From Flavobacteriales bacterium (lineage in GTDB: Bacteria; Bacteroidota; Bacteroidia; Flavobacteriales_F; PHOS-HE28): 64,000 nt of DNA. How positions within the stretch are numbered: position 1 is the first letter of the stretch; each line of letters opens with the position of its first letter. Under the pieces are notes generated by a model, which was not told the DNA's origin, searched no databases, and saw nothing but the letters and a program-made list of their open reading frames with translations. Shown here piece by piece: positions 4,289 to 63,963 of this stretch. The position numbers and the translations under genes are program-made. The DNA is taken from positions 16,605-80,604 of the forward strand of contig JBIIYP010000013.1 of the NCBI GenBank assembly GCA_044346705.1, in the 5' to 3' direction.

Positions 4289-4975
4289 TCACATGGGATC
4301 GATCCCGAACCGAACATAATGGATCTTCCGCCCTTCGGTCAGCCACATCTGCTCGTAGAAAGTGCGGATGTTGAGCACGTCCTGTTCGGCGGGTGACACG
4401 CGGTTGACGAGGTCCGCATAGACGTCATCGCTCTTCTCCAGAACCGGCAACTTGTGCTCGGCGATCTGCTCCAAGGTGTATTCATAGAGCAGCGGGCTGT
4501 CGGTCTTCAGGTGGATGAGGCCACCGGGCTTGAGCACCTCCTTGTAGCGCGCCAGGAACAAGGGGCTGGTGAGGCGCTTGCGGGCCTTGCCGATCTGCGG
4601 GTCGCTGAAGGTGAGCCAGATCTCGCCGACCTCGTGCGTGCCGAAACAACGAAGGAGATGATCGACGTGGGTGCGAACGAAACCGACGTTGTGCAGCCCG
4701 AGCTCCTTGGCCGTCCTGGCACCGCGCCAGATCCGCGCGCCCTTGATGTCCACCCCGATGTAGTTCTTCTCCGGCTCCAGCTGCGCCAGGCCCACGGTGT
4801 ACTCGCCGCCCCCACAGCCCAGCTCAAGCACCAGCGGGGCTTCGCGATGGAAGAAACCGCTGTTCCACTTCCCCTTGAACTTCAGGTCCGCAGCCTGCAG
4901 CTCCGTGAAGGTGGGTTGCACCACGTGTTCGTACGTGGCATTGTCAGCAAAGCGGCTGAGTTTGTTCTTCCCCAT
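4289..4975 (-). CDS. trmB: tRNA (guanine46-N7)-methyltransferase
   Basis: It has the SAM-binding motif LELGCGGGEYTVGLA and the TrmB C-terminus. The start is taken at the internal ATG (MGKNKLSRFADN...) rather than the 5107 ORF start. Confidence 0.8.
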   Translation of the reverse strand: MGKNKLSRFADNATYEHVVQPTFTELQAADLKFKGKWNSGFFHREAPLVLELGCGGGEYTVGLAQLEPEKNYIGVDIKGARIWRGARTAKELGLHNVGFVRTHVDHLLRCFGTHEVGEIWLTFSDPQIGKARKRLTSPLFLARYKEVLKPGGLIHLKTDSPLLYEYTLEQIAEHKLPVLEKSDDVYADLVNRVSPAEQDVLNIRTFYEQMWLTEGRKIHYVRFGIDPM

Positions 4976-5053
4976 GGTGGTGCGCGAAAATAGACCACCG
5001 ATCTTCGCCCCACGCCTTCGCACTGTGCCCAGCAGCGCTTCGGCGGACGAAGC

Positions 5054-6124
5054 ATGCTCCGCAACGCCCGCATCCTCGTTGCACCCCTTGATTGGGGCCT
5101 GGGCCATGCCGCGCGCTGTGTGCCGGTGGTCCGTGCTTTACTGTCCGAAGGCGCCACGCCGATCCTGGGTGCGGACAAGGGTCCGCTGCAGCTGCTGCGG
5201 GCGGAGTTCCCCGAGCTGGAGCATGTGCGGATCCCCGGGATCAACATCCGCTACGGCAGCGGCAGCAGCCAGGTGTGGAGCATGGCGCGGCAGTTCCCGG
5301 CCATGTTGCGCAGCATCCGCGCGGAGCACGCCGTGTTCGAACGCTTGGAACGCGACCTTCGGCTCAACGCGGTGATCAGCGACCAACGCTTCGGTCTGCA
5401 TAGCGATCGCCTCCCCTGCGTGCTGATCACGCACCAGGTCTTCCCCTTCACGCCCCTCGCACAGGGCGCCATGCGCAAGGTGAACCTCCGCCACATCGGC
5501 CGCTTCGATCGCTGCTGGGTGATGGACGAGCCCACCGCACCGGGCCTTGCCGGCGATCTTTCGCACGGTCCGCGCATGCCTGCGAACGCCCGTTACATCG
5601 GTGCGGTAAGCCGGTTCACCATCGCGAAGAGCAGGCCGACCGAGGCTGCCTACCGCATCGTGGCGGTGATCAGCGGCCCCGAACCGCAGCGCACCCAACT
5701 GGAAGGCCTGCTGCTCGACCAGTTGCACCGCATCGACGGCCGGCACCTGTTGGTGCAAGGGCTACCGGCATCGCCTGGTGAGCGTGTCGCAGGAAATGTC
5801 CGCATCGTGAGCCACCTACCGGGCGAGGCCCTTTCCGCGGCCATGCAGCATGCCGAGCTCATTGTTTCGCGCAGCGGCTACACCACGTTGATGGACCTCG
5901 CGGCGATCCAAAGGTCCGCGTTGATCATTCCCACACCGGGACAGCCGGAGCAGGAATACCTCGGCGACCTGCACGCCCGCACCGGCCGTTTCCTCGTGCA
6001 AGGCCAAGAGGCCATCGACCTGGCGGCCGCGTTGACGTGGGCCCCGCCTGCAAGCGCACCGGTGATGGAAGCACCGCTTCTGGCACAGGCGTTGAAGGAC
6101 CTTGGCGACCTGCTCGGCCGTTGA
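5054..6124 (+). CDS. Glycosyltransferase, GT28/MurG-like C-terminal domain family
   Basis: A 356-aa protein with an N-terminal GxGH-like motif (DWGLGHAARC) and a C-terminal SRSGYTTLMDLAA...IIPTPGQPEQ, typical of the UDP-glycosyltransferase fold. Confidence 0.5.
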   Translation: MLRNARILVAPLDWGLGHAARCVPVVRALLSEGATPILGADKGPLQLLRAEFPELEHVRIPGINIRYGSGSSQVWSMARQFPAMLRSIRAEHAVFERLERDLRLNAVISDQRFGLHSDRLPCVLITHQVFPFTPLAQGAMRKVNLRHIGRFDRCWVMDEPTAPGLAGDLSHGPRMPANARYIGAVSRFTIAKSRPTEAAYRIVAVISGPEPQRTQLEGLLLDQLHRIDGRHLLVQGLPASPGERVAGNVRIVSHLPGEALSAAMQHAELIVSRSGYTTLMDLAAIQRSALIIPTPGQPEQEYLGDLHARTGRFLVQGQEAIDLAAALTWAPPASAPVMEAPLLAQALKDLGDLLGR

Positions 6125-11894: not shown

Positions 11895-13589
11895 GTGCTC
11901 ATGCATTTCGGCATCCTCGAGTTCCTCATGTTGGCCGGTTCCCTGGCCCTCTTCATACATGGCATGAAGCTGCTGAGCGAAGGCCTGCAGAAGACCGCCG
12001 GAGGAGGCCTGCGACGGATCCTGGGGGCCATGACGGCCAACCCGTTCCGCGGGCTGCTCACCGGCTTCACCACCACGGCCCTGGTGCAGTATTCCTCGGT
12101 GACGACGGTGATGGTGGTGAGCTTCGTGAACGCCGGGCTCCTTTCCCTTCGCCAGTCCATTCCCGTGATCATGGGTGCCAATATCGGCACCACGCTCAAG
12201 GCGTTGCTTTTTGCTTCCGCTGGCGTGGCGAGCATGAAGCTATCCGTCGTGGCCCTGCCGATCCTGGGCATCGCCTTCCCGATGTTGTTCCTGAAGGGGG
12301 GACGGTTCAAGGCGGCCACCGAGATGTTGCTGGGCATCGCCCTGCTCTTCCTGGGTCTGGACCTGTTGAAGGAGAACGTGCCGCACTTTTCCGCCGATGC
12401 GCTGACCTTCCTGTCGGACCTCGGGGATAACGGCATTCTCAGCGTGCTTTTGTTCGTGGCGATCGGTGCGGTACTGGCGATCGCTGTACAGTCCAGCAGT
12501 GTGGCCTTGGCGCTCACCATGGCCATGTGCCAGAACGGGACCATTGGCTATGAGATGGCGGCCGCGATCGTGCTCGGCGAGAACATCGGCACCACGCTCA
12601 CCGCCAACATCGCGGCCATCGTGGCCAACGCCTGGGGAAAGCGCGCGGCACGGGCCCACTTCCTGATCAAGGTGATCGGCGTCGGTTGGGCTGTTCTGCT
12701 GTTCGGGCCCTACCTCGCCGGGATCGACCTCCTCGTTCAGGAATGGAACGGTGCATCCCCCTACACCAGCCCCAATGCCGTGCTCTGGGCGCTCACCTAC
12801 CTGCACATCTCCTTCAACGCGCTGAACACCGTTCTGCTCATCGGATTCCTGCCCTTCATTGAGCGCATCGTCACACGTATGGTGCGTTCCCGTGGGGAGG
12901 TGGATGAGGAGTACCGCCTGGAATACATCGAGGACCCGATGATGTCCCTAAGCCCCGAACTATCGCTGTTGGAGGCCCGCAAGGAGGTCCACAAGTTCGG
13001 ACGCCTCACCCAGAAGATGCATGGCATGGTCCGCGACCTGCTCATCGAGAAGGATGCCGCCGAACGCAGCCGCCTGCTCCTGCGCATCGCCAAATACGAG
13101 GACATCACCGACAGGATCGAAGTGGAGGTGAGCAAGTACCTCACCAAGACCGGTGCCGAGGCCCGCAACGAGGAGCTCAGCGAGCGCATCCGAGCCATGT
13201 TGTCCATCATCGGCGACCTGGAACGTGTGGGGGACATCCTGTTCCAGATGAGCAAGAGCGTTGAACGCAAGGTCGACGAACGCCTTTGGTTCAGCCCGGA
13301 GCAGCGACAGAACCTGCTCGAAATGATGCAGCTCCTGGAGAAAGCCTTCGAGGTCATGAACGAGAACCTCGGCATGGACGACGACACCGTGAAGCTCGAC
13401 GCCGCAACGGAGGCCGAGCAGCGCATCAACCAGCTCCGTGACCAGCTGCGGCGCACCCACCTGAAGAGCGTGGAGAGCGGCGACCACAACATCAAGAGCG
13501 GCATGGTCTATAGCGACCTCTTCAGCAGCTGCGAAAAGATCGGGGATCACCTGATCAACGTGAGCGAAGCGCTGGCCGGGGAGGTCTGA
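11895..13589 (+). CDS. Na+/phosphate cotransporter (NptA/YjbB family) with a C-terminal PhoU-like domain
   Basis: It has a multi-TM N-terminal half with the duplicated Na/Pi cotransporter motif, and a C-terminal coiled PhoU-like repeat (RIAKYEDITDRIEVEVSKYL...). Confidence 0.7.
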   Translation: MLMHFGILEFLMLAGSLALFIHGMKLLSEGLQKTAGGGLRRILGAMTANPFRGLLTGFTTTALVQYSSVTTVMVVSFVNAGLLSLRQSIPVIMGANIGTTLKALLFASAGVASMKLSVVALPILGIAFPMLFLKGGRFKAATEMLLGIALLFLGLDLLKENVPHFSADALTFLSDLGDNGILSVLLFVAIGAVLAIAVQSSSVALALTMAMCQNGTIGYEMAAAIVLGENIGTTLTANIAAIVANAWGKRAARAHFLIKVIGVGWAVLLFGPYLAGIDLLVQEWNGASPYTSPNAVLWALTYLHISFNALNTVLLIGFLPFIERIVTRMVRSRGEVDEEYRLEYIEDPMMSLSPELSLLEARKEVHKFGRLTQKMHGMVRDLLIEKDAAERSRLLLRIAKYEDITDRIEVEVSKYLTKTGAEARNEELSERIRAMLSIIGDLERVGDILFQMSKSVERKVDERLWFSPEQRQNLLEMMQLLEKAFEVMNENLGMDDDTVKLDAATEAEQRINQLRDQLRRTHLKSVESGDHNIKSGMVYSDLFSSCEKIGDHLINVSEALAGEV

Positions 13590-13690
13590 ACAAGTATCAA
13601 GTCACAAGTAGCAAGGGTCAAGGGTTCAATGCCCTTGTGACTTGACACTTGATACTTGTTACTTGAACCTTGACCCTTGGGTGTGCTCAG
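13590..13690. repeat. Heptad-periodic palindromic element: ~6 x CAAGNNN followed by ~7 x CTTGNNN, forming a long imperfect hairpin between convergent genes
   Basis: The sequence reads caagtat caagtca caagtag caagggt caagggtt caatgcc cttgtga cttgaca cttgata cttgtta cttgaac cttgacc cttgggt. Confidence 0.8.
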
Positions 13691-14199
13691 GGCACCACCA
13701 CCGCCTCCGTATACACGAGGTTGCTTTCGTGCAAGGCCCTGTCCACCAGCTTCACGCTGTAGCGGATGGTATCGCCGCTGGTGCCGGGCAAGGTGGGGTA
13801 CGGTTTCAACGCGACGGCGATCTCCCCTTCCAATGCCTTGTTCTGCCCCGTAGGCGTCACCACCGGAACGCGGTAGTAGAGCGGCAATGCGAATACGAAC
13901 GGGGGAGACCACACGTCATTCTCAAGCGTGTAATACTCCACGAAAAAATTGTGGTAATAGGTCTGCCCCGGGGCGAACGCGCCGGTCGTGTCGCCTTGTC
14001 CGAGGCCGATGTCGCCGTCGCCATCCGTGAACTTCACCACGATGGAGGCGGAATCACCGAACTGTTTGAACTCCTTGTAGCTGATCACGGGCTCCACGGG
14101 GAACTCCTCGGTCTTCAGGCAACCGGAAAGCAGGGTTCCGCACACGGCGGTGACCACGGCTAACTTGCGGGCGGTGCGGGCTGTTGGACGCATCAACAC
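13687..14199 (-). CDS. Hypothetical lipoprotein
   Basis: Signal and lipobox LLSGC. No recognisable catalytic motif. Confidence 0.4.
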   Translation of the reverse strand: MLMRPTARTARKLAVVTAVCGTLLSGCLKTEEFPVEPVISYKEFKQFGDSASIVVKFTDGDGDIGLGQGDTTGAFAPGQTYYHNFFVEYYTLENDVWSPPFVFALPLYYRVPVVTPTGQNKALEGEIAVALKPYPTLPGTSGDTIRYSVKLVDRALHESNLVYTEAVVVP

Positions 14200-14215
14200 A
14201 AAGGTAAGGCCTCCG

Positions 14216-15226
14216 ATGCACCCTCCCCTGCCCCCTCCCTACCAGGACCTGGCCGATCGGGTGTTCGCGGTAACGGATGCCGAAGCGTTCAACGCAGTGG
14301 CGCTCGACCTATTTCGTCTCCACGCCGCCCACAACCTCGTTTACCGTGGATTCCTGAAGGGATTGGGCACCACCGTCGAGGCGGTGGAACGCGTGGCCGA
14401 CATCCCCTGCCTGCCCATCGGCCTGTTCCGCAACCACCGCGTGTTGCTGGAAGGGCTGGAGCCTGCCGTCACCTTCACCAGCAGCGGCACCACAGGAGCC
14501 GTCACCAGCTCCCACCATGTGCCATGGCCTTCGCTGTACGAACGCTCCTTCCTCCGCTCGTTCGAAGCGGTATACGGCCCGGTGGCCGAATGGCGGATCC
14601 TGGCGGTGTTGCCCGCCTACCTGGAGCGCACTGGCAGCTCGCTGGTGTACATGGCCGAACAGCTCATCGCCCGTAGCGGCGATCCGATGAGCGGCACCTA
14701 CCTCTACCAGTACGATCGCCTGGCTGAATTGCTGAAGCAGAGCGAGGCCGAAGGGAAGAAGACCCTACTGTTGGGCGTCACCTTCGCGCTGCTCGACATC
14801 GCGGAACAGCACCCCATACCCCTGCGCCACACTACCATCATGGAGACCGGCGGCATGAAAGGGCGGAGACCGGAGCTGGTGCGCGATGAGCTGCATGCGC
14901 TCCTGAAGCAGGCCTTCAGTGTACCTGCCATCCACAGCGAATACGGCATGACGGAACTGCTGTCCCAGGCGTGGAGCACGGGTGAAGGGACCTACCGTTG
15001 CCCACCCTGGATGCAGGTGCTCGTGCGCGACCCCAACGACCCCTTCGAACGCCTCGGCACCGGTCGCACCGGCGGCGTGGACGTGATCGACCTTGCCAAC
15101 ATCGCCAGCTGCCCCTTCATCGCCACACAGGACCTCGGTCGGGTGGCCGCGGATGGCTCCTTCGAAGTGCTGGGCCGCTTCGACTTCAGCGACCTGCGCG
15201 GGTGCAACTTGTTGGTGGTGGAGTGA
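14216..15226 (+). CDS. LuxE-like acyl-protein synthetase / acyltransferase family protein
   Basis: A 337-aa protein from the internal ATG (MHPPLPPPYQ...). It has an adenylate-forming-like core (TSSGTTG..., ...ETGGMKGRR...) characteristic of the LuxE family. Confidence 0.5.
   Translation: MHPPLPPPYQDLADRVFAVTDAEAFNAVALDLFRLHAAHNLVYRGFLKGLGTTVEAVERVADIPCLPIGLFRNHRVLLEGLEPAVTFTSSGTTGAVTSSHHVPWPSLYERSFLRSFEAVYGPVAEWRILAVLPAYLERTGSSLVYMAEQLIARSGDPMSGTYLYQYDRLAELLKQSEAEGKKTLLLGVTFALLDIAEQHPIPLRHTTIMETGGMKGRRPELVRDELHALLKQAFSVPAIHSEYGMTELLSQAWSTGEGTYRCPPWMQVLVRDPNDPFERLGTGRTGGVDVIDLANIASCPFIATQDLGRVAADGSFEVLGRFDFSDLRGCNLLVVE
15169..15226. repeat. Direct repeat copy 1 (3' end of the luxE-like gene including its stop), partner at 16371..16427
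   Basis: gctgggccgcttcgacttcagcgacctgcgcgggtgcaacttgttggtggtggagtga compared with the copy at 16371 (2 mismatches). Confidence 0.85.
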
Positions 15227-15280
15227 GTGGCCAAAGTCTCTTTCCGCTGAACGCGCAGATGAGCCCTCCGGATCCGAGGA

Positions 15281-16033
15281 TCATCCTTTGAGGCGCATGG
15301 CCTGCCGCGCCACATCGACCAATTGCGGGTCGCCTTTGGCAAGCAAATAGAACTGAATGAACCAGTAGGGCATCTGTTGAAGGTCCCAGGACCATTGCTG
15401 GCCACCATCGCCCACCTTCATCTCTGCGAACATCACCGGCTCCTCCCCACTATTGTCGAACAAGAACGCGTGGTAGCACAGATCCAACGCAGGTACCAGT
15501 TGCTTCAAGGACCTCCAGTACCGTTCCATGATCTTCTCGGTTGGAACATCATGACCGCCTTGCTTGACCCTGGTCTTCACCCGGTCAATATTCATGAGCG
15601 GGGATTCCGTGGCCACGAAATAGAGGTAAACCTTATAGCCGTTCTTCCTAGCCTTGTCCATTACGGCCAACTTGGAGGAGTGGCTGAACACCGTTTCGAA
15701 CGAGAGCTTCTTGGCTCGTTTGATCAACAGGTGAACAATGTGCTGGGCAAGGAGCTGGGCATACCGTTGTGAGTCAACCGGTGCCTTGATCTTGAACACG
15801 TTCACACCCCAAGTCTGCCCTTTGCGGAACCAGAGCAGATCAGCGGGGCCTGGCAACAGACCACTGCTACGCGCGAATCGTTCGAAGACAAGCTTGTTGC
15901 TGTGGACCCCGAAATTCAGAAGGTTCAAGTGCTTGGTCGTGCGAAGGATCCGCTCGATCTCATCCGGGTTCACATACACGCCCATGTCCACCGGACGGCC
16001 ATTCACAAAAGCCTCTCGCACCTTGGTGTACAT
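15281..16033 (-). CDS. Zeta-toxin/COG4185-like P-loop kinase homologue with a degenerate Walker A (putative toxin or pseudo-toxin)
   Basis: The C-terminal region has ...KQGGHDVPTEKIMERYWRS and the N-terminal motif VNPDEI, typical of zeta-like kinases. The expected GxxGxGKS/T is replaced by GRPVDMG. Confidence 0.4.
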   Translation of the reverse strand: MYTKVREAFVNGRPVDMGVYVNPDEIERILRTTKHLNLLNFGVHSNKLVFERFARSSGLLPGPADLLWFRKGQTWGVNVFKIKAPVDSQRYAQLLAQHIVHLLIKRAKKLSFETVFSHSSKLAVMDKARKNGYKVYLYFVATESPLMNIDRVKTRVKQGGHDVPTEKIMERYWRSLKQLVPALDLCYHAFLFDNSGEEPVMFAEMKVGDGGQQWSWDLQQMPYWFIQFYLLAKGDPQLVDVARQAMRLKG

Positions 16034-16106
16034 GGTGCTCTATCCCCGAGCCGTTCGGACCAGCGAACACACGCAAGCGCAAGGTCTTGGCCATGCGGGA
16101 TCCAGC

Positions 16107-16328
16107 CTACGGCAACTTCACCGGCTCCAGACGCTGGACGCGTTTGGTCACCTTGCCGGCCTTGTTCACCATCACCAACCACCCGTCGCGCTCCACCATG
16201 ATGGTCTTTCGAACCGTAAAGGCCATCGCTTTGGCCTGTTTCGCCGCCTTCTTGAAGGCTGCATCCATCGCGCGACCTTCCGCGGTCGGTTTGCGAAGCG
16301 TCTTCAAAGCCTGCTTCTTGGTTGCCAT
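16107..16328 (-). CDS. Small basic protein (73 aa), putative antitoxin or partner of the downstream zeta-like gene
   Basis: It lies immediately upstream and co-oriented (74-bp gap) with the zeta-like ORF. There is no independent homology evidence. Confidence 0.3.
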   Translation of the reverse strand: MATKKQALKTLRKPTAEGRAMDAAFKKAAKQAKAMAFTVRKTIMVERDGWLVMVNKAGKVTKRVQRLEPVKLP

Positions 16329-16370
16329 GGTCCAAAGTTAAGGACGCCACTAATGCTTGAGGTGGACGCT

Positions 16371-16427
16371 GCTGGGCCGCTTCGACTTCAGCGACCTGCG
16401 GGGATGCAACTTGTTGGTGGTGGAGTG
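16371..16427. repeat. Direct repeat copy 2 of the luxE-like 3' end
   Basis: See 15169..15226. Confidence 0.85.
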
Positions 16428-16455
16428 AACGATCACCTCCCTGGCACGAGCAGCA

Positions 16456-17127
16456 CTACAAATGGTAGTAGTACAGGTTGCCCTCGAAGTTCGTGTCCAG
16501 GTTCGCCTTGCTATCGAAGAAGACCTGCTCCGTGGGAGCCTTGCAATACCCGAACTCATCATGCGCGGTGATCAACCGGGCATAGGCCGAGGCGATCACT
16601 GCATGTGAGCCATCGGAACTGCTCCGCAGCAGCTGGTCCTCCGTGTGGAAGAAGCAGGTAACGGTGCTTCCGAACCGATCGAACATCCAGACCCCATGCT
16701 CGGCGAACTGAACGACCAATGCGTCTATCTGCGCTTGTGGGATCCGCTGGTTGCATTCCGCCTTGGCGATGGGCTCGAACGCAGTGATGATCAGGAAGGG
16801 CTCGGAGCCGGTGCTTCCTGATGAAGGACCAACGGGCAACTGTGCGATCGCGCTCGCGTGGAAGGCCTTCCATATCCTGGCTTCCTTGGCGCCATCGATC
16901 TGCAGCGGACCTGACCAAAAGCCCGCCGCTTCGGCATAGCGTTCGAAGACCACCATCAACCTGGCCCGGCCGGCCGTTGCGACCCACTCGTAAAGGATGT
17001 TGAGCGGCCGCATGCCGAACTCCTGTTGGAGCCGATCCGCCAATTCGGACCCCGGCACGCCCATGCGATCAAGTCCCTGCTTGATCCGTTTCGTGGCTTG
17101 ATAATCCGGGTCGGAAGGAACGATCAT
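16456..17127 (-). CDS. Hypothetical protein (223 aa), downstream of tyrS
   Basis: An ORF with coding-like composition. No recognisable motifs. Confidence 0.35.
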   Translation of the reverse strand: MIVPSDPDYQATKRIKQGLDRMGVPGSELADRLQQEFGMRPLNILYEWVATAGRARLMVVFERYAEAAGFWSGPLQIDGAKEARIWKAFHASAIAQLPVGPSSGSTGSEPFLIITAFEPIAKAECNQRIPQAQIDALVVQFAEHGVWMFDRFGSTVTCFFHTEDQLLRSSSDGSHAVIASAYARLITAHDEFGYCKAPTEQVFFDSKANLDTNFEGNLYYYHL

Positions 17128-17160
17128 GCGTTCTCGATCAGCGAAGGGCCATGTCCTCGC

Positions 17161-18438
17161 TTACACCACCTTCACCAGGAAGTAACTCTTCTTCCCCCGC
17201 TGCAGCAGCACGAAGCGCTCGCTCAGCAGGTCGGAAGCGTTCACCACGCGGTCCTCGGCGGCCTTGGTGCGGTTCACGGCGATGGATCCTTCCTTCAGGG
17301 CGCGTTTCGCTTCGCCCTTGCTGGGCAGAAAGCCGGTGTGGTCCGTGAGCAGATCGATGATGCCGATGCCTGAGGTGAGCGCGCTGCGCGGCACTTCGGC
17401 CTGGGGCACACCGTCGAACACCTCCAGCAGTTGCTTCTCGCTGAGTTGGCTCAGCCCGTCCGTGGCATTGCTGAAGAGGATCTCGCTCGCACGGAGGGCG
17501 GCGTCCTTCTCAGCTTCCCCATGCACCAGCCTGGTGATGAACGCCGCCACCTCCTTCTGCAATTTGCGTCGTCCGGGATCCTTGGTGTGCTCGGCGATCA
17601 GAGCTTCGCATTCCTCCTGGGTCCAGTGCGTGAAGATCTTCGCGAAGCGCGCGGCCTCATCGTCCGAAGCGTTCAACCAGAACTGGTAGAACTTGTAAGG
17701 GCTGGTGCGCGCGGCATCGAGCCACACGTTGCCGCCCTCGCTCTTGCCGAACTTGCTGCCATCGCTCTTGGTGAGCAGTGGCGTGGTCACAGCGAAAGCC
17801 TCACCCCCTTCCATGCGGCGGATGAGCTCCGTACCCGTGGTGATGTTGCCCCATTGGTCGCTGCCTCCCATCTGCAAGCGACACCCGAGCTGCTTGTAGA
17901 GGTGCACGAAGTCGTAGCCCTGCACCAGCTGGTAGCTGAACTCGGTGAAGCTGATGCCGCTCTCCATGCGGTTCTTCACACTGTCCTTGGCCATCATGTA
18001 GTTCACGGTGATGTGCTTGCCCACTTCGCGGATGAAGCGGAGGAAGCCCATGTCCTTGAACCAGTCGTAGTTGTTGACGAGCTGCGCGGGGTTGGTGGGG
18101 CTGTTGAAATCGAGGAAGCGCTCCAGCTGGGCCTTGATGCAGGCCTGGTTGTGGCGGAGGGCGTCCTCATCCAGCAGGTTGCGTTCAGCGCTCTTGCCGC
18201 TGGGGTCGCCGACCATGCCGGTGGCGCCGCCAACGAGCGCCACGGGCTTGTGACCGCAACGCTGGAAGTGCACCAGGATCATGATCTGCACCAGGTTGCC
18301 CACGTGCAGGCTGTCCGCCGTGGGGTCGAAGCCGATGTAGCCGAGGGCCGGGGCCTGCTTCAGGTGGTCGGCGGTTCCGGGCATGCTGTCGTGCAGCAGT
18401 CCGCGCCAGTTCAGTTCGTGCAGAAAGTCGGTGGGCAT
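17161..18438 (-). CDS. tyrS: Tyrosine--tRNA ligase
   Basis: It has a HIGH-like motif (LHVGNL), a KMSKS-like motif (KFGKSEG) and a C-terminal S4 domain. The start is taken at the internal ATG ([11 protein letters not shown]...). Confidence 0.85.
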
Positions 18439-18629
18439 GGGGGGAAATGCGGGTTGCGAAGGTAGACAGCGGACAGGAGGCAGGGAGCAGCCGCAGTGGC
18501 CAGGAAGAGAGGAACCACCGATGGACACAGATGAACACAGATACTGATAAGAGCTGGCTGCCGGACCTACGCCCGTGGCTCGTGGCTCAGGGCTCGCAGC
18601 CAAAAGCGAAGGAAACAAGCTCTGCTGCC

Positions 18630-18680
18630 GAAAAGCCTTTTCACTTGACCCTTGTCACTTGCGTGTTGTCACTTACCACT
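18630..18680. repeat. CTTGNNN heptad array (cttgacc cttgtca cttgcgt gttgtca cttacca cttctcc), related to the element at 13590..13690
   Basis: Read directly in the tyrS/epimerase divergent intergenic region. Confidence 0.6.
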
Positions 18681-18705
18681 TCTCCCCTCGCCCTACCTTT
18701 CCCCG

Positions 18706-19710
18706 ATGGATCTGGTGACCGGCGGAACGGGGATCGTGGGCTCGCACCTGCTGCTGCACTTGGTGGCTGCGGGACGTGATGTGCGGGCCACGCGCAGGCC
18801 GGAGAGCAACGTGGACGTGGTGCGTCGGGTGTTCAAGCATCACCGTGCCGATGGCGAGGCGCTCTTCGACCGAATTGCCTGGGTGGAGGCCGACATGCTG
18901 GACCCCATCGCCCTGGAGGACGCCATGCGGGGTGTGGAGCACGTATACCACAGCGCCGCGCTGGTGAGCTTCGATCCACGTGATGACCGGGAGCTTTTCG
19001 CTCAGAACATCACCGGCACGGCCAACGTGGTGAACGCAGCGCTCGCGGCCGGTGTGAAGCGCTTGTTGCACGTGAGCTCCAACGCCAGCATTGGCAAGAT
19101 GGTCGATGGTGTGCCGGCCAACGAGGCGAACGAATGGGAACGCGACGCCAACACTTCGGCCTATGCCGTGAGCAAGGTGGAGGCGGAACTGGAGGTGCAA
19201 CGCGGCATCGCCGAAGGGCTGGATGCGGTGCTGGTGAACCCCTGCATCGTGCTGGGACCGGGCGTTGCGGGGCGCAGCAGCATGACGATGGTGGAGCGCG
19301 TCCGTAAGGGCACGCGCTTCTATCCGCCGGGCAGCAATTCCGTGGTGGACGCGCGTGATGTAGCGGCCTTTTCCGTGGCGCTGATGGAGAAGGGCGCGAC
19401 CGGGGAGAAGCACCTGCTCGTGGGCGAGAACCTCTCCTACCAGCAGCTCTTCACGCTCATCGCCACGGCCTTCGGCAAGCCCGGGCCTGTGTACAAGCTG
19501 CAGAGCTGGATGCTCGGCCTGGCCTGGCGCATGGAACGGTTGCGCACGCTGTTCGGCGGCAAGCCGTTGATCACACGCCACACGGCGCATACGGCGATGA
19601 TGCTGCGCAGCTATGATGCTTCCAAGGCCATGCGCATCACCGGCCTGCATTTCCGCAGCGCCAAAGAGTCCGTGGCGGATGTGGTGCGCTACTTGGGCGC
19701 CGAGGGCTGA
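18706..19710 (+). CDS. NAD-dependent epimerase/dehydratase (extended SDR) family protein
   Basis: It has the N-terminal Rossmann motif VTGGTGIVGSHL and a YxxxK region. Confidence 0.7.
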   Translation: MDLVTGGTGIVGSHLLLHLVAAGRDVRATRRPESNVDVVRRVFKHHRADGEALFDRIAWVEADMLDPIALEDAMRGVEHVYHSAALVSFDPRDDRELFAQNITGTANVVNAALAAGVKRLLHVSSNASIGKMVDGVPANEANEWERDANTSAYAVSKVEAELEVQRGIAEGLDAVLVNPCIVLGPGVAGRSSMTMVERVRKGTRFYPPGSNSVVDARDVAAFSVALMEKGATGEKHLLVGENLSYQQLFTLIATAFGKPGPVYKLQSWMLGLAWRMERLRTLFGGKPLITRHTAHTAMMLRSYDASKAMRITGLHFRSAKESVADVVRYLGAEG

Positions 19711-42255: not shown

Positions 42256-43419
42256 TCAAACAAACATCTGTTGTAAGAGGCCGCGCTTCCACCGCTGCGC
42301 CGCCGCCACCGCCTGCGCCACGCCCGCCACCTTCGCATCCAAGGCCATCAGGAAGCCCGCGATGCGGGATTGCTCTTCGAGACAAGGAAGTGAAATGGGC
42401 ATGCCGGTGAACATCGGCAGACGCAACGATTTCACGGTCGACCCAACGGCTTGAGTAAGGAAGTACGCCCGGTGCTTGTCGATGTACTGAAACAGGAATG
42501 GACCTGTTGCTCCCTTGAAGTTCATTATCGCATAGGCTCTTTGGTGCAGGTCGAACTTTCCGGTGAAGTGTTTCGGGACGAACTCTTGCCCCTCACCGCC
42601 TACGATGATCGCCTCGGTGTCGTACAGGAATATGCTACTCCTGCGCACATCCACGGAGCGATCGAAGAAGGTGTACTGCGCGTCCAAGGATGAATCGACG
42701 CGGTTAGAAGTTCCAGTGGTGATATACGCGATCTCCCCCAACCTCTTCTCCTCCCAATCCGGGAACTCCCCGCCATCCTTCCGCTTGAAGCGCAGTTCTT
42801 GCGCGAACAGTTGTTGCACCACGCCCTTTTTGTACTGCTCCAGCAAGGCCTGCTTGCGCTTCAGCTGCTGGATCTTGCGGTCCACCGCACCCAGGAAGGC
42901 CGCGATCTTCTGCTGTTCGGGGAGGGCTTCCGGAATATTCAGTTCAAGAGCACGAAGGTCATTACTGTAGATCCTCGTGATCGTGGTCGAGTTCAGCTTC
43001 GACCAGTCGATCTTCGACAATAGCAGGAAGAGGAAGTCGTTGATGACATGCTCCTCAGGATTGTCTATCCAAACAATGTTCGAGTCCTGGTAGTAGCTAT
43101 CGTGTCCATCAAACTGCAGACACTTTCCCACTGTGCCAGCGCAAGTGATCAGCGTTTCACCAGCTCGCGGATAGTTGTATCTCTCCTTGAAGTCCTCAAA
43201 GTGCTTGCGGGTTATGTACGAATCCGGCTTCCCACCTAAGGTCCCGATCTTGTAGAATGGTACGTCTCCGCTCTCGGCGGTCTGGTTCGCGAAGATCCTC
43301 TTGCACATGAGGATCTCGCACCCATCACCAAGAGCACGCTTCGACCAATTCCCTTTGAACGCAGGGAACCGCAGCATTGGAACTTGTCGGTGCACCTTCT
43401 CCGTCACTTCGTTCATCAC
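42256..43419 (-). CDS. hsdS: Type I restriction-modification specificity subunit
   Basis: Two target-recognition domains are separated by a conserved coiled region (...LPEQQKIAAFLGAVDRKIQQL... and ...LEEQSRIAGFLMALDAKVAG...). Confidence 0.8.
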   Translation of the reverse strand: MMNEVTEKVHRQVPMLRFPAFKGNWSKRALGDGCEILMCKRIFANQTAESGDVPFYKIGTLGGKPDSYITRKHFEDFKERYNYPRAGETLITCAGTVGKCLQFDGHDSYYQDSNIVWIDNPEEHVINDFLFLLLSKIDWSKLNSTTITRIYSNDLRALELNIPEALPEQQKIAAFLGAVDRKIQQLKRKQALLEQYKKGVVQQLFAQELRFKRKDGGEFPDWEEKRLGEIAYITTGTSNRVDSSLDAQYTFFDRSVDVRRSSIFLYDTEAIIVGGEGQEFVPKHFTGKFDLHQRAYAIMNFKGATGPFLFQYIDKHRAYFLTQAVGSTVKSLRLPMFTGMPISLPCLEEQSRIAGFLMALDAKVAGVAQAVAAAQRWKRGLLQQMFV

Positions 43420-43886
43420 GCGGTTGGTGTTTCGGTATCGGGGGCTTCGCCTTCGAGAGCCTCAGGCATCGCCCCAGCCTCAGGCATCGCCCCAGCCTCA
43501 GGCATCGCCCCAGCCTCGCCTTCGAGAGCCTCAGGCTTCGGCATCGCCGGATCCGTATTCGCGTTGGCTGAGGCACTCGAAGCCAACGCTAGCAGGGCTT
43601 TGACGTCGCGGTAGGCCTTTGCGTATTCGGGGAGCTTATCGAAATCGCCGTTGATCAACGCTTCCTTCTTCTTCCTGCTCCAGCCTTGCACTTGCTTCTC
43701 GCGGTAGAAGGCTTGGTCCACGCGTGGGTACCACTCGTAGTAAACGAGCTTCACCGGTGGATGCTTGCGGGTGTGGTTGGCACCTTCGCCGGCTTCATGC
43801 TGTGCAATACGTCGCTCCAAATCGTTGGTGCTACCGGTGTAGTAGGAGCCATCGCCGCAGAGGAGTATGTACATGAAGCCTTGCAT
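43416..43886 (-). CDS. GIY-YIG nuclease family protein with a repetitive C-terminal tail
   Basis: The N-terminus is FMYILLCGDGSYYTGSTNDLERRIAQH (GIY-YIG). The C-terminus is PEAGAM x3. The stop overlaps the hsdS start (ATGA). Confidence 0.7.
   Translation of the reverse strand: MQGFMYILLCGDGSYYTGSTNDLERRIAQHEAGEGANHTRKHPPVKLVYYEWYPRVDQAFYREKQVQGWSRKKKEALINGDFDKLPEYAKAYRDVKALLALASSASANANTDPAMPKPEALEGEAGAMPEAGAMPEAGAMPEALEGEAPDTETPTA
43459..43512. repeat. 3 x 18-bp perfect tandem repeat (agcctcaggcatcgcccc) encoding PEAGAM repeats
   Basis: Read directly. Confidence 0.9.
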
Positions 43887-61550: not shown

Positions 61551-62604
61551 CCCCTTCACCCCACCGGGGCCGCCCTCGCAGGACCTGCTGGAACGTTATG
61601 TCCGTGGCGAGCTCCATGCAGCCGAGCGCCATGCCCTGGAACTCCGGATGGAAGAGGACCCCTTGCTCCGCGAGGCCGTTGAGGGGCTCGGCATGCCGAA
61701 CGCGCTCGCAGGGCTTTCACCGCTCGCTGACCATCGGCCGCGGACCGTGCGTTGGGGGCCCCGGCTGTTCGGCGCCGGCCTGTTGATCGCGGCAGGTTGG
61801 GTGGCCGCCCTGCTGTGGGTCCGTGAGGAGCCCAACGCAGCACCTGCGCCCATCGCCCAACAGCAACTGGAACAACCCTTCGCCGCGGACAGTGTGATCG
61901 CTGTGATCGAGCAGGAGATCATCCTGACGGAGCCCTTGAACGCAACGGAACGCATCGGCCACGACCCCGTGCAACGAGCGCCCATGACCGTGCGCGACAC
62001 CGTCATGGCACAGCCCATCGATCGTCGGGACAGCAGCCCGACCGCGCTGACCATACCACCGCCGGTGCCCGCACCGAGGGAAGCTCCGCCCAGGACCCGC
62101 AGCAACCGGCAGCTGGCCTATGTGCATGACCTGAAGCTCGTGCATCCCAAGGAGCTCTACGAGCCCGTGCCATTGCTCACGGAACCCAGCGGCATCCCGG
62201 CCAATTTCGCGGATGGCAACGACATGCGGGAACGGACCGGCCCACCACGCACCATGCGTTACCTGGACTATATGGACGTGGCGCTGGGCCGCTTCGCACG
62301 GAACGATGAGCGCGGCTGTCTGCAGGACCTGGTCCACCTGTTGGGCCAGTATCCCAACGACGTGAACGGGCGGTTCTATGCCGGCCTGTGCTGCTACAAC
62401 CTGGGGCTCCCGGAGCGGGCCATGGGTTACCTCGAAGCAGTGGTGAACGACCCCCTCGATACCTTCCAAGAGGAGGCGTACTGGTACCTCGCCCTCAGCA
62501 CGGAACGAGCATTGGGCATGGAAGCTGCGGAAGCGCTCTACCGGAACGTGGCTGAAGGCGGCGGCTTCTATGCCCCTCGGGCCGTTGCGAAGCTCACCCC
62601 CTGA
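61528..62604 (+). CDS. Putative anti-sigma factor (single TM, C-terminal TPR-like domain)
   Basis: It overlaps the sigma factor's 3' end. It has a TM segment (LFGAGLLIAAGWVAALLWV) and C-terminal TPR-like helices. Confidence 0.5.
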   Translation: MPTMRPFDPFTPPGPPSQDLLERYVRGELHAAERHALELRMEEDPLLREAVEGLGMPNALAGLSPLADHRPRTVRWGPRLFGAGLLIAAGWVAALLWVREEPNAAPAPIAQQQLEQPFAADSVIAVIEQEIILTEPLNATERIGHDPVQRAPMTVRDTVMAQPIDRRDSSPTALTIPPPVPAPREAPPRTRSNRQLAYVHDLKLVHPKELYEPVPLLTEPSGIPANFADGNDMRERTGPPRTMRYLDYMDVALGRFARNDERGCLQDLVHLLGQYPNDVNGRFYAGLCCYNLGLPERAMGYLEAVVNDPLDTFQEEAYWYLALSTERALGMEAAEALYRNVAEGGGFYAPRAVAKLTP

Positions 62605-62664
62605 ACGGGGCGGGGCGCCGCTGCTTCCGCATCGGCGCCCCGCCCGTTAGCGGAGTACCCGGAA

Positions 62665-63963
62665 CTACTTGTCGAGCACCTTGAACTCTGTGCGTCGGTT
62701 GCGTTGGTGCTGCTCATCGGTACACATGGTGCATTCACACGCGTCCACCGGTTTCGTTTCGCCGTAGCCCTTGCTCTTCACACGGTCCTTGGCGATGCCC
62801 TTGCTGATGAGGTGGTCCACGGCGCTCTTGGCACGCTTCTCCGAGAGGCTCGCGTTGTACGCATCCTTGCCGCGGCAGTCGGTGTGTGAGCTCAGTTCGA
62901 TCTTCACCGAAGGGTTGTCGATCAGGGTCTGCACCAACTTGTCCAGCTCCACGGCGGCATCGGGGCGGATGTTCCACTTGGCCAGGTCGTAGTAGATGTT
63001 GTCCAAGCGCACCACCTGGTCCACTTCCAGCGGGAAGAGGTTGAAGTCGGTCTTGATGAGGGCGCTGGTCTTGCCTTTGGTGGTGATGCGCGCACTTTGC
63101 TTGAAGAAGCCCTCCTTCTCCACCCTGACGCGGTGATCGGTCGCGGGTTGGAGGCTGAAGGCATACCTGCCATCGGCACCTACCACCACTTCCTGAAGCA
63201 CGTTGTCGCTGGCATCACACAGCAGCACCTTGCTGCCGGCAAGTGGCTGCATCGTCCCGCCGTGGTACACCACGCCCTCCGCACCGTAGTCGACCTTGTC
63301 CAGTTCGACCAGTACGCTCTCCAAAGGGTCGACCTCGGTGCTGACCACCATTTCACGCTGCATGTAGCCGTTCTTGCTCGCACTGATGGTGTAGCTCGTC
63401 CGGTGGTCGGCATCGAAGGCGAACTTCCCTTCCGTGTCGGTCTCCATAGTGGGCAGGTCCATCCGCTGGCCGCGATCATCCTTCACCAGCACGGTGGCCA
63501 TGGGGATCGGCAGCCGTGTGAGCTTGTCCACGACCGTACCGGCGATGCGGATCAAGGGCGGGCGCACCGTGGCGCCGTAGATATCATCGCTGCCCTTGCC
63601 TCCGGGTCGATCGCTGGCGAAGAACCCCGTGCTGTCATCGCTCAACAACACCATGTTGTGGTCGTTGAACCGGGTGTTCAAGGGGTATCCGAGGTTGAAC
63701 ACATTGCCCGGCCCGGTGGGCGTAAGGCGGCACATGAAATTGTCATGGCCCCCCAGACCGGAATGCCCGTTGCTGGAGAAGTACAGCACGCTGTCGCGGC
63801 TCAGGAACGGGAAGAGCTCATCGCCCAAGGTGTTCACCTTGGGACCCATGTTCGTCGGAACGCCCCAGCCATTGCCAAGGTTCTCGCAATACCAGATGTC
63901 GGTACCACCAACTCCACCGGGCCTGTCGCTGGCGAAGAACAAGCGCCGACCGTCGATGCTCAC
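62665..63963 (-). CDS. OmpA-family protein with WD40-like/TolB-like beta-propeller repeats and a C-terminal OmpA peptidoglycan-binding domain; the N-terminus may extend past the window end
   Basis: The C-terminus has ...LSSHTDCRGKDAYNASLSEKRAKSAVDHL...TEFKVL (OmpA_C). PD40-like repeats are present. Confidence 0.65.
   Translation of the reverse strand: MSIDGRRLFFASDRPGGVGGTDIWYCENLGNGWGVPTNMGPKVNTLGDELFPFLSRDSVLYFSSNGHSGLGGHDNFMCRLTPTGPGNVFNLGYPLNTRFNDHNMVLLSDDSTGFFASDRPGGKGSDDIYGATVRPPLIRIAGTVVDKLTRLPIPMATVLVKDDRGQRMDLPTMETDTEGKFAFDADHRTSYTISASKNGYMQREMVVSTEVDPLESVLVELDKVDYGAEGVVYHGGTMQPLAGSKVLLCDASDNVLQEVVVGADGRYAFSLQPATDHRVRVEKEGFFKQSARITTKGKTSALIKTDFNLFPLEVDQVVRLDNIYYDLAKWNIRPDAAVELDKLVQTLIDNPSVKIELSSHTDCRGKDAYNASLSEKRAKSAVDHLISKGIAKDRVKSKGYGETKPVDACECTMCTDEQHQRNRRTEFKVLDK

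Follow-up and report, generated by a model that had tools for sequence, protein, structure and literature searches.

What is a long series of strictly spaced 7-nt words doing between two genes that converge on each other? The question is raised by a 64,000-nt stretch of a Flavobacteriales bacterium genome (contig JBIIYP010000013.1 of GenBank assembly GCA_044346705.1, forward-strand positions 16,605 to 80,604; this whole stretch is called the window below, and positions are counted from its first nucleotide), in which CAAGNNN heptads followed by CTTGNNN heptads occupy the space between two facing stop codons at 13.6 kb. The element is, as judged by comparison of sequences, conserved in place, resized by units, constrained at four of seven positions and positionally equivalent to a terminator. 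We read it tentatively, with a likelihood that falls a little short of even, as a heptad hairpin of gene 3' ends and intercistronic regions, similar to the repetitive extragenic palindromic (REP) elements, which may act as a weak bidirectional terminator and evolve by 7-nt slippage.

The spacer sequence (13587–13689, plus strand) starts with a TGA stop codon (13587–13589) and a single A, and continues with heptads, the sequence TCAATGCC, further heptads, GTGC and finally TCA (13687–13689). The 5' arm (13591–13625), delimited by the sequence itself, pattern statistics and a period-7 detector, consists of five perfect heptads (CAAGTAT, CAAGTCA, CAAGTAG and CAAGGGT twice). The 3' arm (13634–13682), seen in the sequence, in an inverted-repeat scan and in the folds, consists of seven (CTTGTGA, CTTGACA, CTTGATA, CTTGTTA, CTTGAAC, CTTGACC and CTTGGGT), and the 8 nt of TCAATGCC at 13626–13633 form either the apex of the folds or a degenerate sixth unit. 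The first-pass annotation had counted six CAAG units, of which five are perfect and the sixth is degenerate; all seven of its CTTG units are perfect. The 12 units (5 + 7) keep a strict 7-nt register with the arms 8 nt apart, and all 48 of 48 core positions are invariant, beside 36 free positions that make up 11 different triplets. Lag-7 autocorrelation and the period-7 detector found period 7 and no other. The heptads begin 1 nt past the stop codon of the upstream gene and finish 4 nt short of that of the minus-strand gene, the 97-bp spacer between the converging stops being wholly occupied by the element. The window contains 11 matches to (CTTGNNN)x3 with at most one mismatch, where shuffles predict 0.21, and all of them fall here or in a second array at 18.6 kb; Tandem Repeats Finder (TRF), lag-7 autocorrelation and period-7 scans recover the same CAAG/CTTG arrays and no others of the kind.

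The plus-strand gene (11901–13589) encodes a 562-aa Na/Pi cotransporter with PhoU domains (Pfam Na_Pi_cotrans, 4e-51; PhoU, 1e-14); it was called on eight contigs, and the exact protein is named 'phosphate:Na+ symporter' in databases. Facing it on the minus strand (13687–14199) is an open reading frame (ORF) for a conserved, lipoprotein-like hypothetical protein of 170 aa, which was called on 8/8 contigs, belongs to a 19-member 90% cluster and has its 3' end conserved in the relatives L261–L271 described below. Independent gene calls on eight metagenome contigs reproduced the convergent pair together with its 97-bp spacer, and the element shows not a single base difference among the eight, which are independent assemblies from different samples. 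That CAAG and then CTTG units of 7 bp lie between convergent genes, as first annotated, was thus confirmed by the sequence, by Pfam and by the gene calls on eight contigs.

The long imperfect hairpin of strict 7-bp periodicity that had been proposed is borne out by folding, since both strands of a 121-nt segment fold with -50.2 and -48.2 kcal/mol (z about -4.4) and none of 200 shuffles folded as well; the 103-nt core from stop to stop reaches -40 kcal/mol (z -4.9). The minimum-free-energy structure has a loop of 12 nt, since the last CAAGGGT unit stays unpaired. Approximately the first four CTTG units pair with the 5' arm in the fold, and the last three can alternatively pair with CAAGGGTCAAGGGTTCAA. 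The inverted-repeat scan gave a match (I2) of 18 nt at 94% complementarity over the 3' arm, and by the same scan the hairpin is the longest intergenic one of the 64-kb window. A transcript from either side would read 5'-(CAAGNNN)n...(CUUGNNN)n-3', with a predicted imperfect stem of about 27 bp containing periodic mismatches. Canonical terminators are not enriched around the element (6 found, 9.7 expected), and something else must therefore end those transcripts.

The history of the locus was followed in 50 metagenomic loci carrying relatives of the transporter, by comparing the sequence 3' of each stop codon. The closely related L262 (90% amino acid identity) retains the 5+7 element, altered by three substitutions; one of these, an A-to-G change, preserves pairing as G:U on the plus strand. 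In L263 and L266 (84%) the CAAG units number four and the right arm is longer, with CTTG and CGTG units in alternation, which is the mark of 14-nt duplications, and their element still folds (z -3.2). At 68% identity, L268 retains a direct CAAG array only; L264, L265 and L267 (67–68%) have unrelated sequence past the transporter stop; and in L269–L271 (59–65%) the transporter and the convergent gene almost abut. Relatives at 50% or less, which are low in GC, carry textbook bidirectional terminators (A-tract, GC stem, T-tract) at the same spot, with z values of -6.8 and -9.3. Comparison of the window with its relatives, which were not chosen by pattern, demonstrated that the core of the units is identical at 125/135 positions (93%), the flanks at 289/353 (82%) and the free positions at 56/84 (67%). 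Seven orthologous pairs taken together gave 94% for the core, 78% for the flanks and 65% for the free positions. Unit numbers shift in steps of 7 or 14 nt, and an indel of exactly 7 nt separates L192 from L232, two orthologous elements of Pseudomonas.

How widely such elements occur was examined with the pattern CAAGN3CAAGN3CAAG-N(3-33)-CTTGN3CTTGN3CTTG, scanned over 596 Gb of species-representative genomes, in which about 0.1 matches are expected by chance according to our own arithmetic (596e9 x 2 x 31 / 4^24). At least 120 loci match; the statistics of the class on dialects, contexts, positions and periods rest on the 120 matches listed. Judged by their record titles, they come from about 11 phyla, namely Pseudomonadota, Bacteroidota, Acidobacteriota, Planctomycetota, Verrucomicrobiota and Chloroflexota, and further Gemmatimonadota, Patescibacteria, Nitrospinota, Omnitrophica and Geobacter/'Deltaproteobacteria'. 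Pseudomonas and its relatives account for 36 of the 120, Thiobacillus, Gallionella, Halomonas and Thioalkalivibrio are also represented, and the Bacteroidota include two high-GC Flavobacteriales metagenome-assembled genomes (MAGs; L134 and L140) with a unit dialect akin to that of the window. None of the matches listed belongs to Bacillota, Actinomycetota, Enterobacterales, Cyanobacteria or Archaea, which may be taken as a hint only. The arms mostly have four to five units, a peak without geometric fall-off, and the spacer between them has a median of 16 nt and no preferred phase. Lineages have their own dialects (CAAGCNN in Pseudomonas, CAAGTCY in Pyrinomonadaceae, CAAGTTY in Gemmataceae, CAAGARN in Mucilaginibacter), and where one genome contains several matches the copies have a common unit type and no common sequence, so that nothing like the consensus of about 20–40 nt of REP elements is found. 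Copies of the architecture, for which the first-pass annotation proposed a genome-wide search, are abundant in other genomes; in the organism's own approximately 77 kb (the window and two extensions), a single hairpin is accompanied by a lone CTTG array and by an array of CGTGGCT units.

According to a crude ORF caller, 63 of 125 elements of the class lie between co-directional, 22 between convergent and 9 between divergent genes, the remaining ones being at contig edges or caller artefacts. Elements of the class start at a median of 6.5 nt (interquartile range 1–10) past the stop codon of the facing gene, with 81% between -10 and +15 nt (n=114), and the stop codon is often absorbed into the outermost degenerate unit (TAAG, xTAG, TGAG). 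Pfam analysis of flanking ORFs identified elements within true operons: between pstA and pstB and again between pstB and phoU, between two RND transporter genes, between accD and folC, between pilB and pilC, and between infB and the next gene. A cluster of six tRNA genes in a Gemmataceae MAG (L164, 4613–5421) has heptad hairpins in 3/5 of its spacers, with the units CCAGTCT/GAGACTG and CAAGTTY/RAACTTG. Since the elements inside operons and tRNA clusters leave no room for a promoter of the next gene, they are not efficient terminators.

The period, and not the word, is what these elements have in common. With arrays counted at four or more invariant columns over four units, 0.87 Mb of bacterial loci contained 319 arrays at period 7, against 27, 20 and 10 at periods 6, 8 and 9 and about one in shuffles. 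The flanks of the genome matches also carry many other unit types: another 102 heptad arrays, diverse in their units and mostly again in inverted pairs, were found outside the triggering elements. Controls on core word and arm order, run in viral contigs, gave 50 stretches with GAAG then CTTC, 19 with ACAG then CTGT, 10 with CAAG then CTTG, four with CAAC then GTTG and two with GAAC then GTTC. As other cores give the same architecture, CAAG/CTTG is weakened as a specific recognition word and ruled out as a special, universally recognised one. With many unit types at one period, what stays constant is the inverted pairing of short 7-nt repeat arrays and not any given word. Arm order is strongly biased in the same contigs: CAAG comes first in 10 stretches and CTTG first in none (10:0), and GAAG comes first in 50 and CTTC first in three (50:3), one of the three being merely the junction of two tandem forward elements. 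This polarity is the A-tract-to-T-tract order of bidirectional terminators. With the purine arm first, the 3' arm would be the one to form the weaker pyrimidine-RNA/purine-DNA hybrid, and Rho-attracting, pyrimidine-rich RNA might be kept sequestered.

Several loci are crowded with heptad hairpins of more than one type. A Thermomicrobiales MAG (L132, 1274–7716) has seven of them within 8 kb, which draw on four to five unit types, with the units GGTAGCC/CGGCTAC, GGAGGCG/CCGCCTT, CAAGTCT/AGACTTG and GAGCTTC/AAGCTCG, and L139, L177, L216, L229 and L230 are likewise crowded. Octanucleotide inverted pairs (e.g. AAAGTRTC/ACACTTTG), comparable to the 'class 1' sites of Geobacter, stand beside heptad ones in L142, L158, L227 and L229. 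A viral contig (L384, 5808–8826) contains four inverted heptad pairs in the rare order, with the CTTC arm before the GAAG arm.

Among known systems, REP elements and bacterial interspersed mosaic elements (BIMEs) are protectors of mRNA 3' ends and weak attenuators, found after stop codons, between convergent genes and in operons including pst. Like those of enterobacteria and pseudomonads, the element is an imperfect intergenic palindrome just past stop codons of convergent or co-directional genes. REPs have a species-wide consensus, a GTAG-type tag and REP-associated tyrosine transposases (RAYTs), whereas here only the unit type is in common and the stem is built of 7-nt repeats; no GTAG-type tag is present at the ends of the 13.6-kb element. 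With bidirectional intrinsic terminators it has in common the orthologous position in the low-GC relatives and, on both strands, an A-containing arm at the 5' side and a T-containing arm at the 3' side, but it differs by the absence of a U-tract and of a short GC-rich stem, by its stem of about 27 bp and by class members inside operons. In a subset of the Pseudomonas members only, the spacer between the arms starts A-rich and ends T-rich, as a central terminator flanked by heptad 'wings' would; inter-arm spacers alone fold weakly (mean -2.4 kcal/mol).

The closest published counterpart is the (GGGANTN)n repeat of Xanthomonas campestris and X. axonopodis, in which positions 1–4 and 6 are conserved and four units are the mode (Rehm et al. 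2015, PMC4692102); in a broader sense, so are the heptanucleotide 'long simple sequence repeats' of Mrazek et al. (2007), as cited in PMC4692102. Each genome has 70–75 convergent inverted pairs, and about 90% of the arrays are intergenic, at a mean of 28 nt from the upstream and 160 nt from the downstream ORF, mostly between co-oriented genes (16% convergent, 7–8% divergent); 83% are at the same locus in two species, with length changes, and they are transcribed, with no function found (PMC4692102). The CAAG/CTTG family is alike in its 7-nt units with four to five conserved and two to three free positions, about four units per array, inverted pairing, intergenic position near the end of the upstream ORF, scarcity at divergent genes and loci kept with length variation. 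It is unlike it in that its units are not G-rich and form no G-quadruplex (G4), in its Flavobacteriales host, and in density, which is low in the approximately 77 kb analysed here compared with about 185 arrays per Xanthomonas genome. In Geobacter metallireducens, the paired 'global regulator binding sites' (Aklujkar et al. 2009, PMC2700814), suggested as IHF/HU sites by a guess of the authors, are similarly opposite-strand arrays of three to five hepta- or octanucleotides with a variable gap, intergenic and also found in an operon (proB-proA); their units are different (GTTGCTYN, TCTCCGTS, MTYCTGA), and an insertion sequence beside the sites was reported for Geobacter. The kind of element is thus already known, and what the present analysis adds is the unit family, its breadth, its adjacency to stop codons and the conservation of core versus spacer positions.

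The reading as a REP-like element in terminator position fits best because the element occupies the terminator site of its relatives and because the class abuts stop codons. The hairpin would stop or slow RNA polymerase weakly in both directions without a U-tract, and it may also block 3'-to-5' exonucleases; the 3' ends of both converging mRNAs would thereby be defined and stabilised, and at the convergent junction the hairpin could stand in for a bidirectional terminator. Replication slippage by 7 nt would create and resize the array, and template switching within the palindrome might mirror the changes of one arm onto the other. Of the possibilities first annotated, a REP-like element and a terminator position thus fit best, and the lack of a U-tract and the members inside operons go against a simple terminator.

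A number of results weigh against this reading. The consensus scan for intrinsic terminators (GC-rich stem-loop plus U-tract) had no match at 13590–13690, the tail after the stem being ACUUGAACCUUGACCC with no U-tract, and strong termination cannot be the general function of the class. The period-7 scan of the approximately 77 kb of the organism found no second heptad hairpin, and L261, at 92% amino acid identity of the transporter, has a shorter, partly decayed version that folds weakly (z -1.4). Free positions of the two arms are complementary at 70%, compared with 52–65% for arms of different elements of the same dialect, and within the Pseudomonas group at 69% compared with 65%; as inter-arm complementarity is only modestly raised, the arms look like two draws from one unit repertoire rather than a strictly kept palindrome. 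In 58 co-directional contexts, sense mismatches of the G:U type (52) and the A:C type (41) gave no clear RNA signature. A universal rule of the purine arm first also fails: when other unit families were sampled orientation-blind, the ratio was 12:7.

That the element is a tolerated selfish or neutral repeat, functionless and expanding into free intergenic space by heptad slippage and palindrome-perfecting template switching, is possible, though we doubt it; its expansion would be bounded by the stop codon and the signals of the next gene, and selection would remove only harmful arrangements. Such a repeat would agree with spacers that are filled completely, even to the point of taking the stop codon into the outermost unit, with the many unit sequences in a single genome (the seven hairpins of four to five types in 8 kb of L132), with some arrays that are near-perfect, as young expansions would be, with changes in unit number by 7 and 14 nt, and with relatives at 59–68% identity that lack the element, the two genes almost abutting in L269–L271. 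The wobble test, with no RNA signature, and the Xanthomonas heptamers, with no function found despite experiments, point the same way. Uniform decay, however, cannot give 48/48 invariant core positions beside highly variable spacers, nor a core whose conservation exceeds that of the coding DNA beside it (93% versus 82%). Arm length peaks at four to five units instead of declining geometrically, arm order is strongly biased for CAAG and GAAG, and the element is not hypervariable, being identical in eight assemblies. An array of heptads read by a protein that controls hairpin formation or local transcription is unlikely on the sequence features available, although four conserved and three free positions per unit, kept in orthologues, are what contacts of fixed footprint would give, degenerate outermost units retain 'AG', unit dialects are lineage-specific, and lone direct arrays exist (at 18637–18685, and in phage contigs with CAAG in the sense strand in 46 cases versus 15). 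Candidate readers would be an OB-fold or cold-shock protein binding single-stranded RNA or DNA (6–7-nt footprint), a HutP-like reader of NAG-N4 triplets, or a ribbon-helix-helix protein of the omega type on double-stranded DNA. The omega repressor of pSM19035, a ribbon-helix-helix protein that binds 7-bp heptads set end to end as direct and as inverted copies, provides a precedent, and HutP and the heptanucleotide sites of CspB are further ones for reading in a heptad register. The operator geometry of the omega type is present at 13.6 kb, at gene 3' ends and not at a promoter position, which is possible at 18.6 kb. The many unrelated units within and between genomes mean that a single reader cannot account for the class; within the window the arrays have no candidate gene linked to them, and 7-bp spacing places successive sites on different faces of B-DNA.

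A pan-bacterial regulatory class whose function depends on the 7-nt register itself appears decidedly unlikely; its conserved 4-nt core would allow more than one register of pairing between the arms, or would let an abundant protein of the cold-shock/OB-fold type with a 7-nt footprint cover them one unit at a time. The hairpin might then serve as a tunable attenuator and mRNA-stability switch after stop codons, in operons, between tRNAs and in phages, and the 13.6-kb element would be one case of it. Mobility of the REP type or as a miniature inverted-repeat transposable element, by copying through a transposase such as RAYT, is very improbable. The hairpin does stand beside stop codons as REPs do, it is present in the lineage of the window and absent from the 59–68% relatives, and insertion sequences have been reported next to the analogous Geobacter paired sites (PMC2700814). 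Copies within one genome have a unit type in common and no master sequence, however, orthologous elements stay in place across species, no target duplication is visible in the sequence at 13590/13683, no transposase is nearby in the window, and only one hairpin occurs in approximately 77 kb. Non-B DNA, whether G4, i-motif or triplex, has been proposed for the G-rich heptamers of Xanthomonas and Nostoc, and the same anatomy is found in the GGGAATC family, for which G4 formation in vitro is documented (PMC4692102); Rehm et al. favour G4 and read the preference for four units as its minimum (PMC4692102). For the 13.6-kb element this explanation as a whole is barely credible. The CAAGNNN/CTTGNNN sequence nowhere has three or more consecutive G in register (G-tracts being a mark of the published subfamily and not of heptamers as a class), and the preference for four to five units ascribed to G4 is also present in the CAAG family, which forms none; G4 at this site is impossible from the sequence and effectively refuted. 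Cruciform extrusion of the element is possible.

Other candidates were rejected. A coding repeat is excluded because a 7-nt period cannot hold a reading frame and the arrays are outside called genes, and a phase-variable contingency locus because the element is identical in eight assemblies of different samples. The neighbourhood, which includes phoR besides the PhoU-domain gene, would suggest a Pho box or PhoB site, but class members flank unrelated genes, and the 11-bp period of Pho boxes also counts against it. A promoter was dismissed, since the sigma-70-like match on the minus strand (13621–13593) is merely TTGACC inside a heptad; the Bacteroidota promoter consensus differs from the sigma-70-like one. 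Neither a canonical terminator (consensus scan) nor a known RNA family was found: with Rfam, no covariance model matched at E<=1 in the window from 13000 to 19500, save a chance rsmX hit elsewhere, and eight class loci gave tRNAs only.

The published G4 idea cannot apply to the CAAG/CTTG family, which nevertheless agrees with the Xanthomonas one in its number of units, its pairing, its place at gene ends and its pattern of conservation. Occurrence in about 11 phyla, adjacency to stop codons, including those in operons of cultivable Pseudomonas, and constraint at four of seven positions point to a common cause. Should the hairpins determine mRNA 3' ends or the polarity of operons, they would represent a widespread unannotated layer of expression control, and would also cause ORF ends and starts to be mis-called; as selfish repeats, they would offer a clean system for the study of 7-nt slippage.

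The related CTTGNNN array that had been annotated near 18630–18680 is real and spans 18637–18685 on the plus strand, as delimited by the sequence and pattern matches, but it is a lone direct array of seven heptads, three perfect and four degenerate (CTTTTCA, CTTGACC, CTTGTCA, CTTGCGT, GTTGTCA, CTTACCA, CTTCTCC), with no CAAG partner. The window's two arrays differ from each other in sequence. With gene starts taken from the L122 gene calls, the second array lies within the 267-bp spacer between the divergent tyrS and epimerase genes, in the sense orientation of the latter, and ends 20 nt upstream of its start (18706). Heptamers are the commonest long simple repeats in bacteria, according to Mrazek (2007) as cited in PMC4679880, and TAACTGA direct repeats upstream of start codons are known from Beggiatoaceae, cyanobacteria and some Bacteroidetes, with S1, Csp or CsrA proposed as binders (MacGregor 2015, PMC4679880). 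Like these and the cyanobacterial short tandemly repeated repetitive (STRR) heptamers, the array at 18637–18685 is intergenic, sense and just upstream of a start codon; the TAACTGA and STRR repeats differ in being near-perfect direct repeats of one heptamer, almost never in inverted pairs.

The tyrS/epimerase spacer is unusually rich in repeats. It also holds a different heptad array, (CGTGGCT)x3.3, on the plus strand at 18574–18597 (TRF and the period-7 detector), and a 10-bp tandem repeat, CACAGATGAA, of 2.7 copies at 18516–18542. A strain difference is seen near tyrS (window 17124–17430 versus L121 4345–4647), where tyrS is followed by an additional DUF805 gene on a 127-kb JGI contig; TyrRS is called with 442 aa on the JGI contig compared with 425 aa, and the window agrees with the ENA contigs.

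Lone direct arrays are also a feature of tailed-phage contigs of low GC content (about 37%; L001–L120), a family that carries a terminase small subunit and a VRR-NUC-like gene. Three to five direct (GCTTGNN)n arrays per approximately 5 kb are present, for example in L004 at 1731–1786, 1823–1864 and 2633–2674. They have 4–11 units with two free positions each, are almost never inverted pairs, and are found either where genes meet or in the tails of small ORFs. Among arrays with an unambiguous gene direction, CAAG(C) outnumbers CUUG in the sense strand by 46:15; although the gene calls are rough, this ratio hints at a transcription-linked bias.

Elsewhere in the window, the neighbourhood of the element has a GC content of 62% and includes PorP/SprF and CHU_C genes, which points to an uncultured Flavobacteriales bacterium of high GC content as the host. 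At another convergent junction (plus-strand ORF ending at 62604, minus-strand ORF at 62665), a GC-rich hairpin of 17 bp, closed by a 4-nt loop (GGGCGGGGCGCCGCTGC/GCATCGGCGCCCCGCCC; 62608–62645), has neither heptad structure nor a T-tract. A perfect 18-bp tandem repeat of 3.3 copies (43458–43517) in a 156-aa minus-strand ORF (43416–43886) encodes a repeated GAMPEA hexapeptide, and the GC content around 40–44 kb is 55–56%, against about 63%. Approximately 0.5 kb upstream of the window start, L386 carries an MNT/HepT (nucleotidyltransferase/HEPN) toxin-antitoxin pair at 4743–5377.

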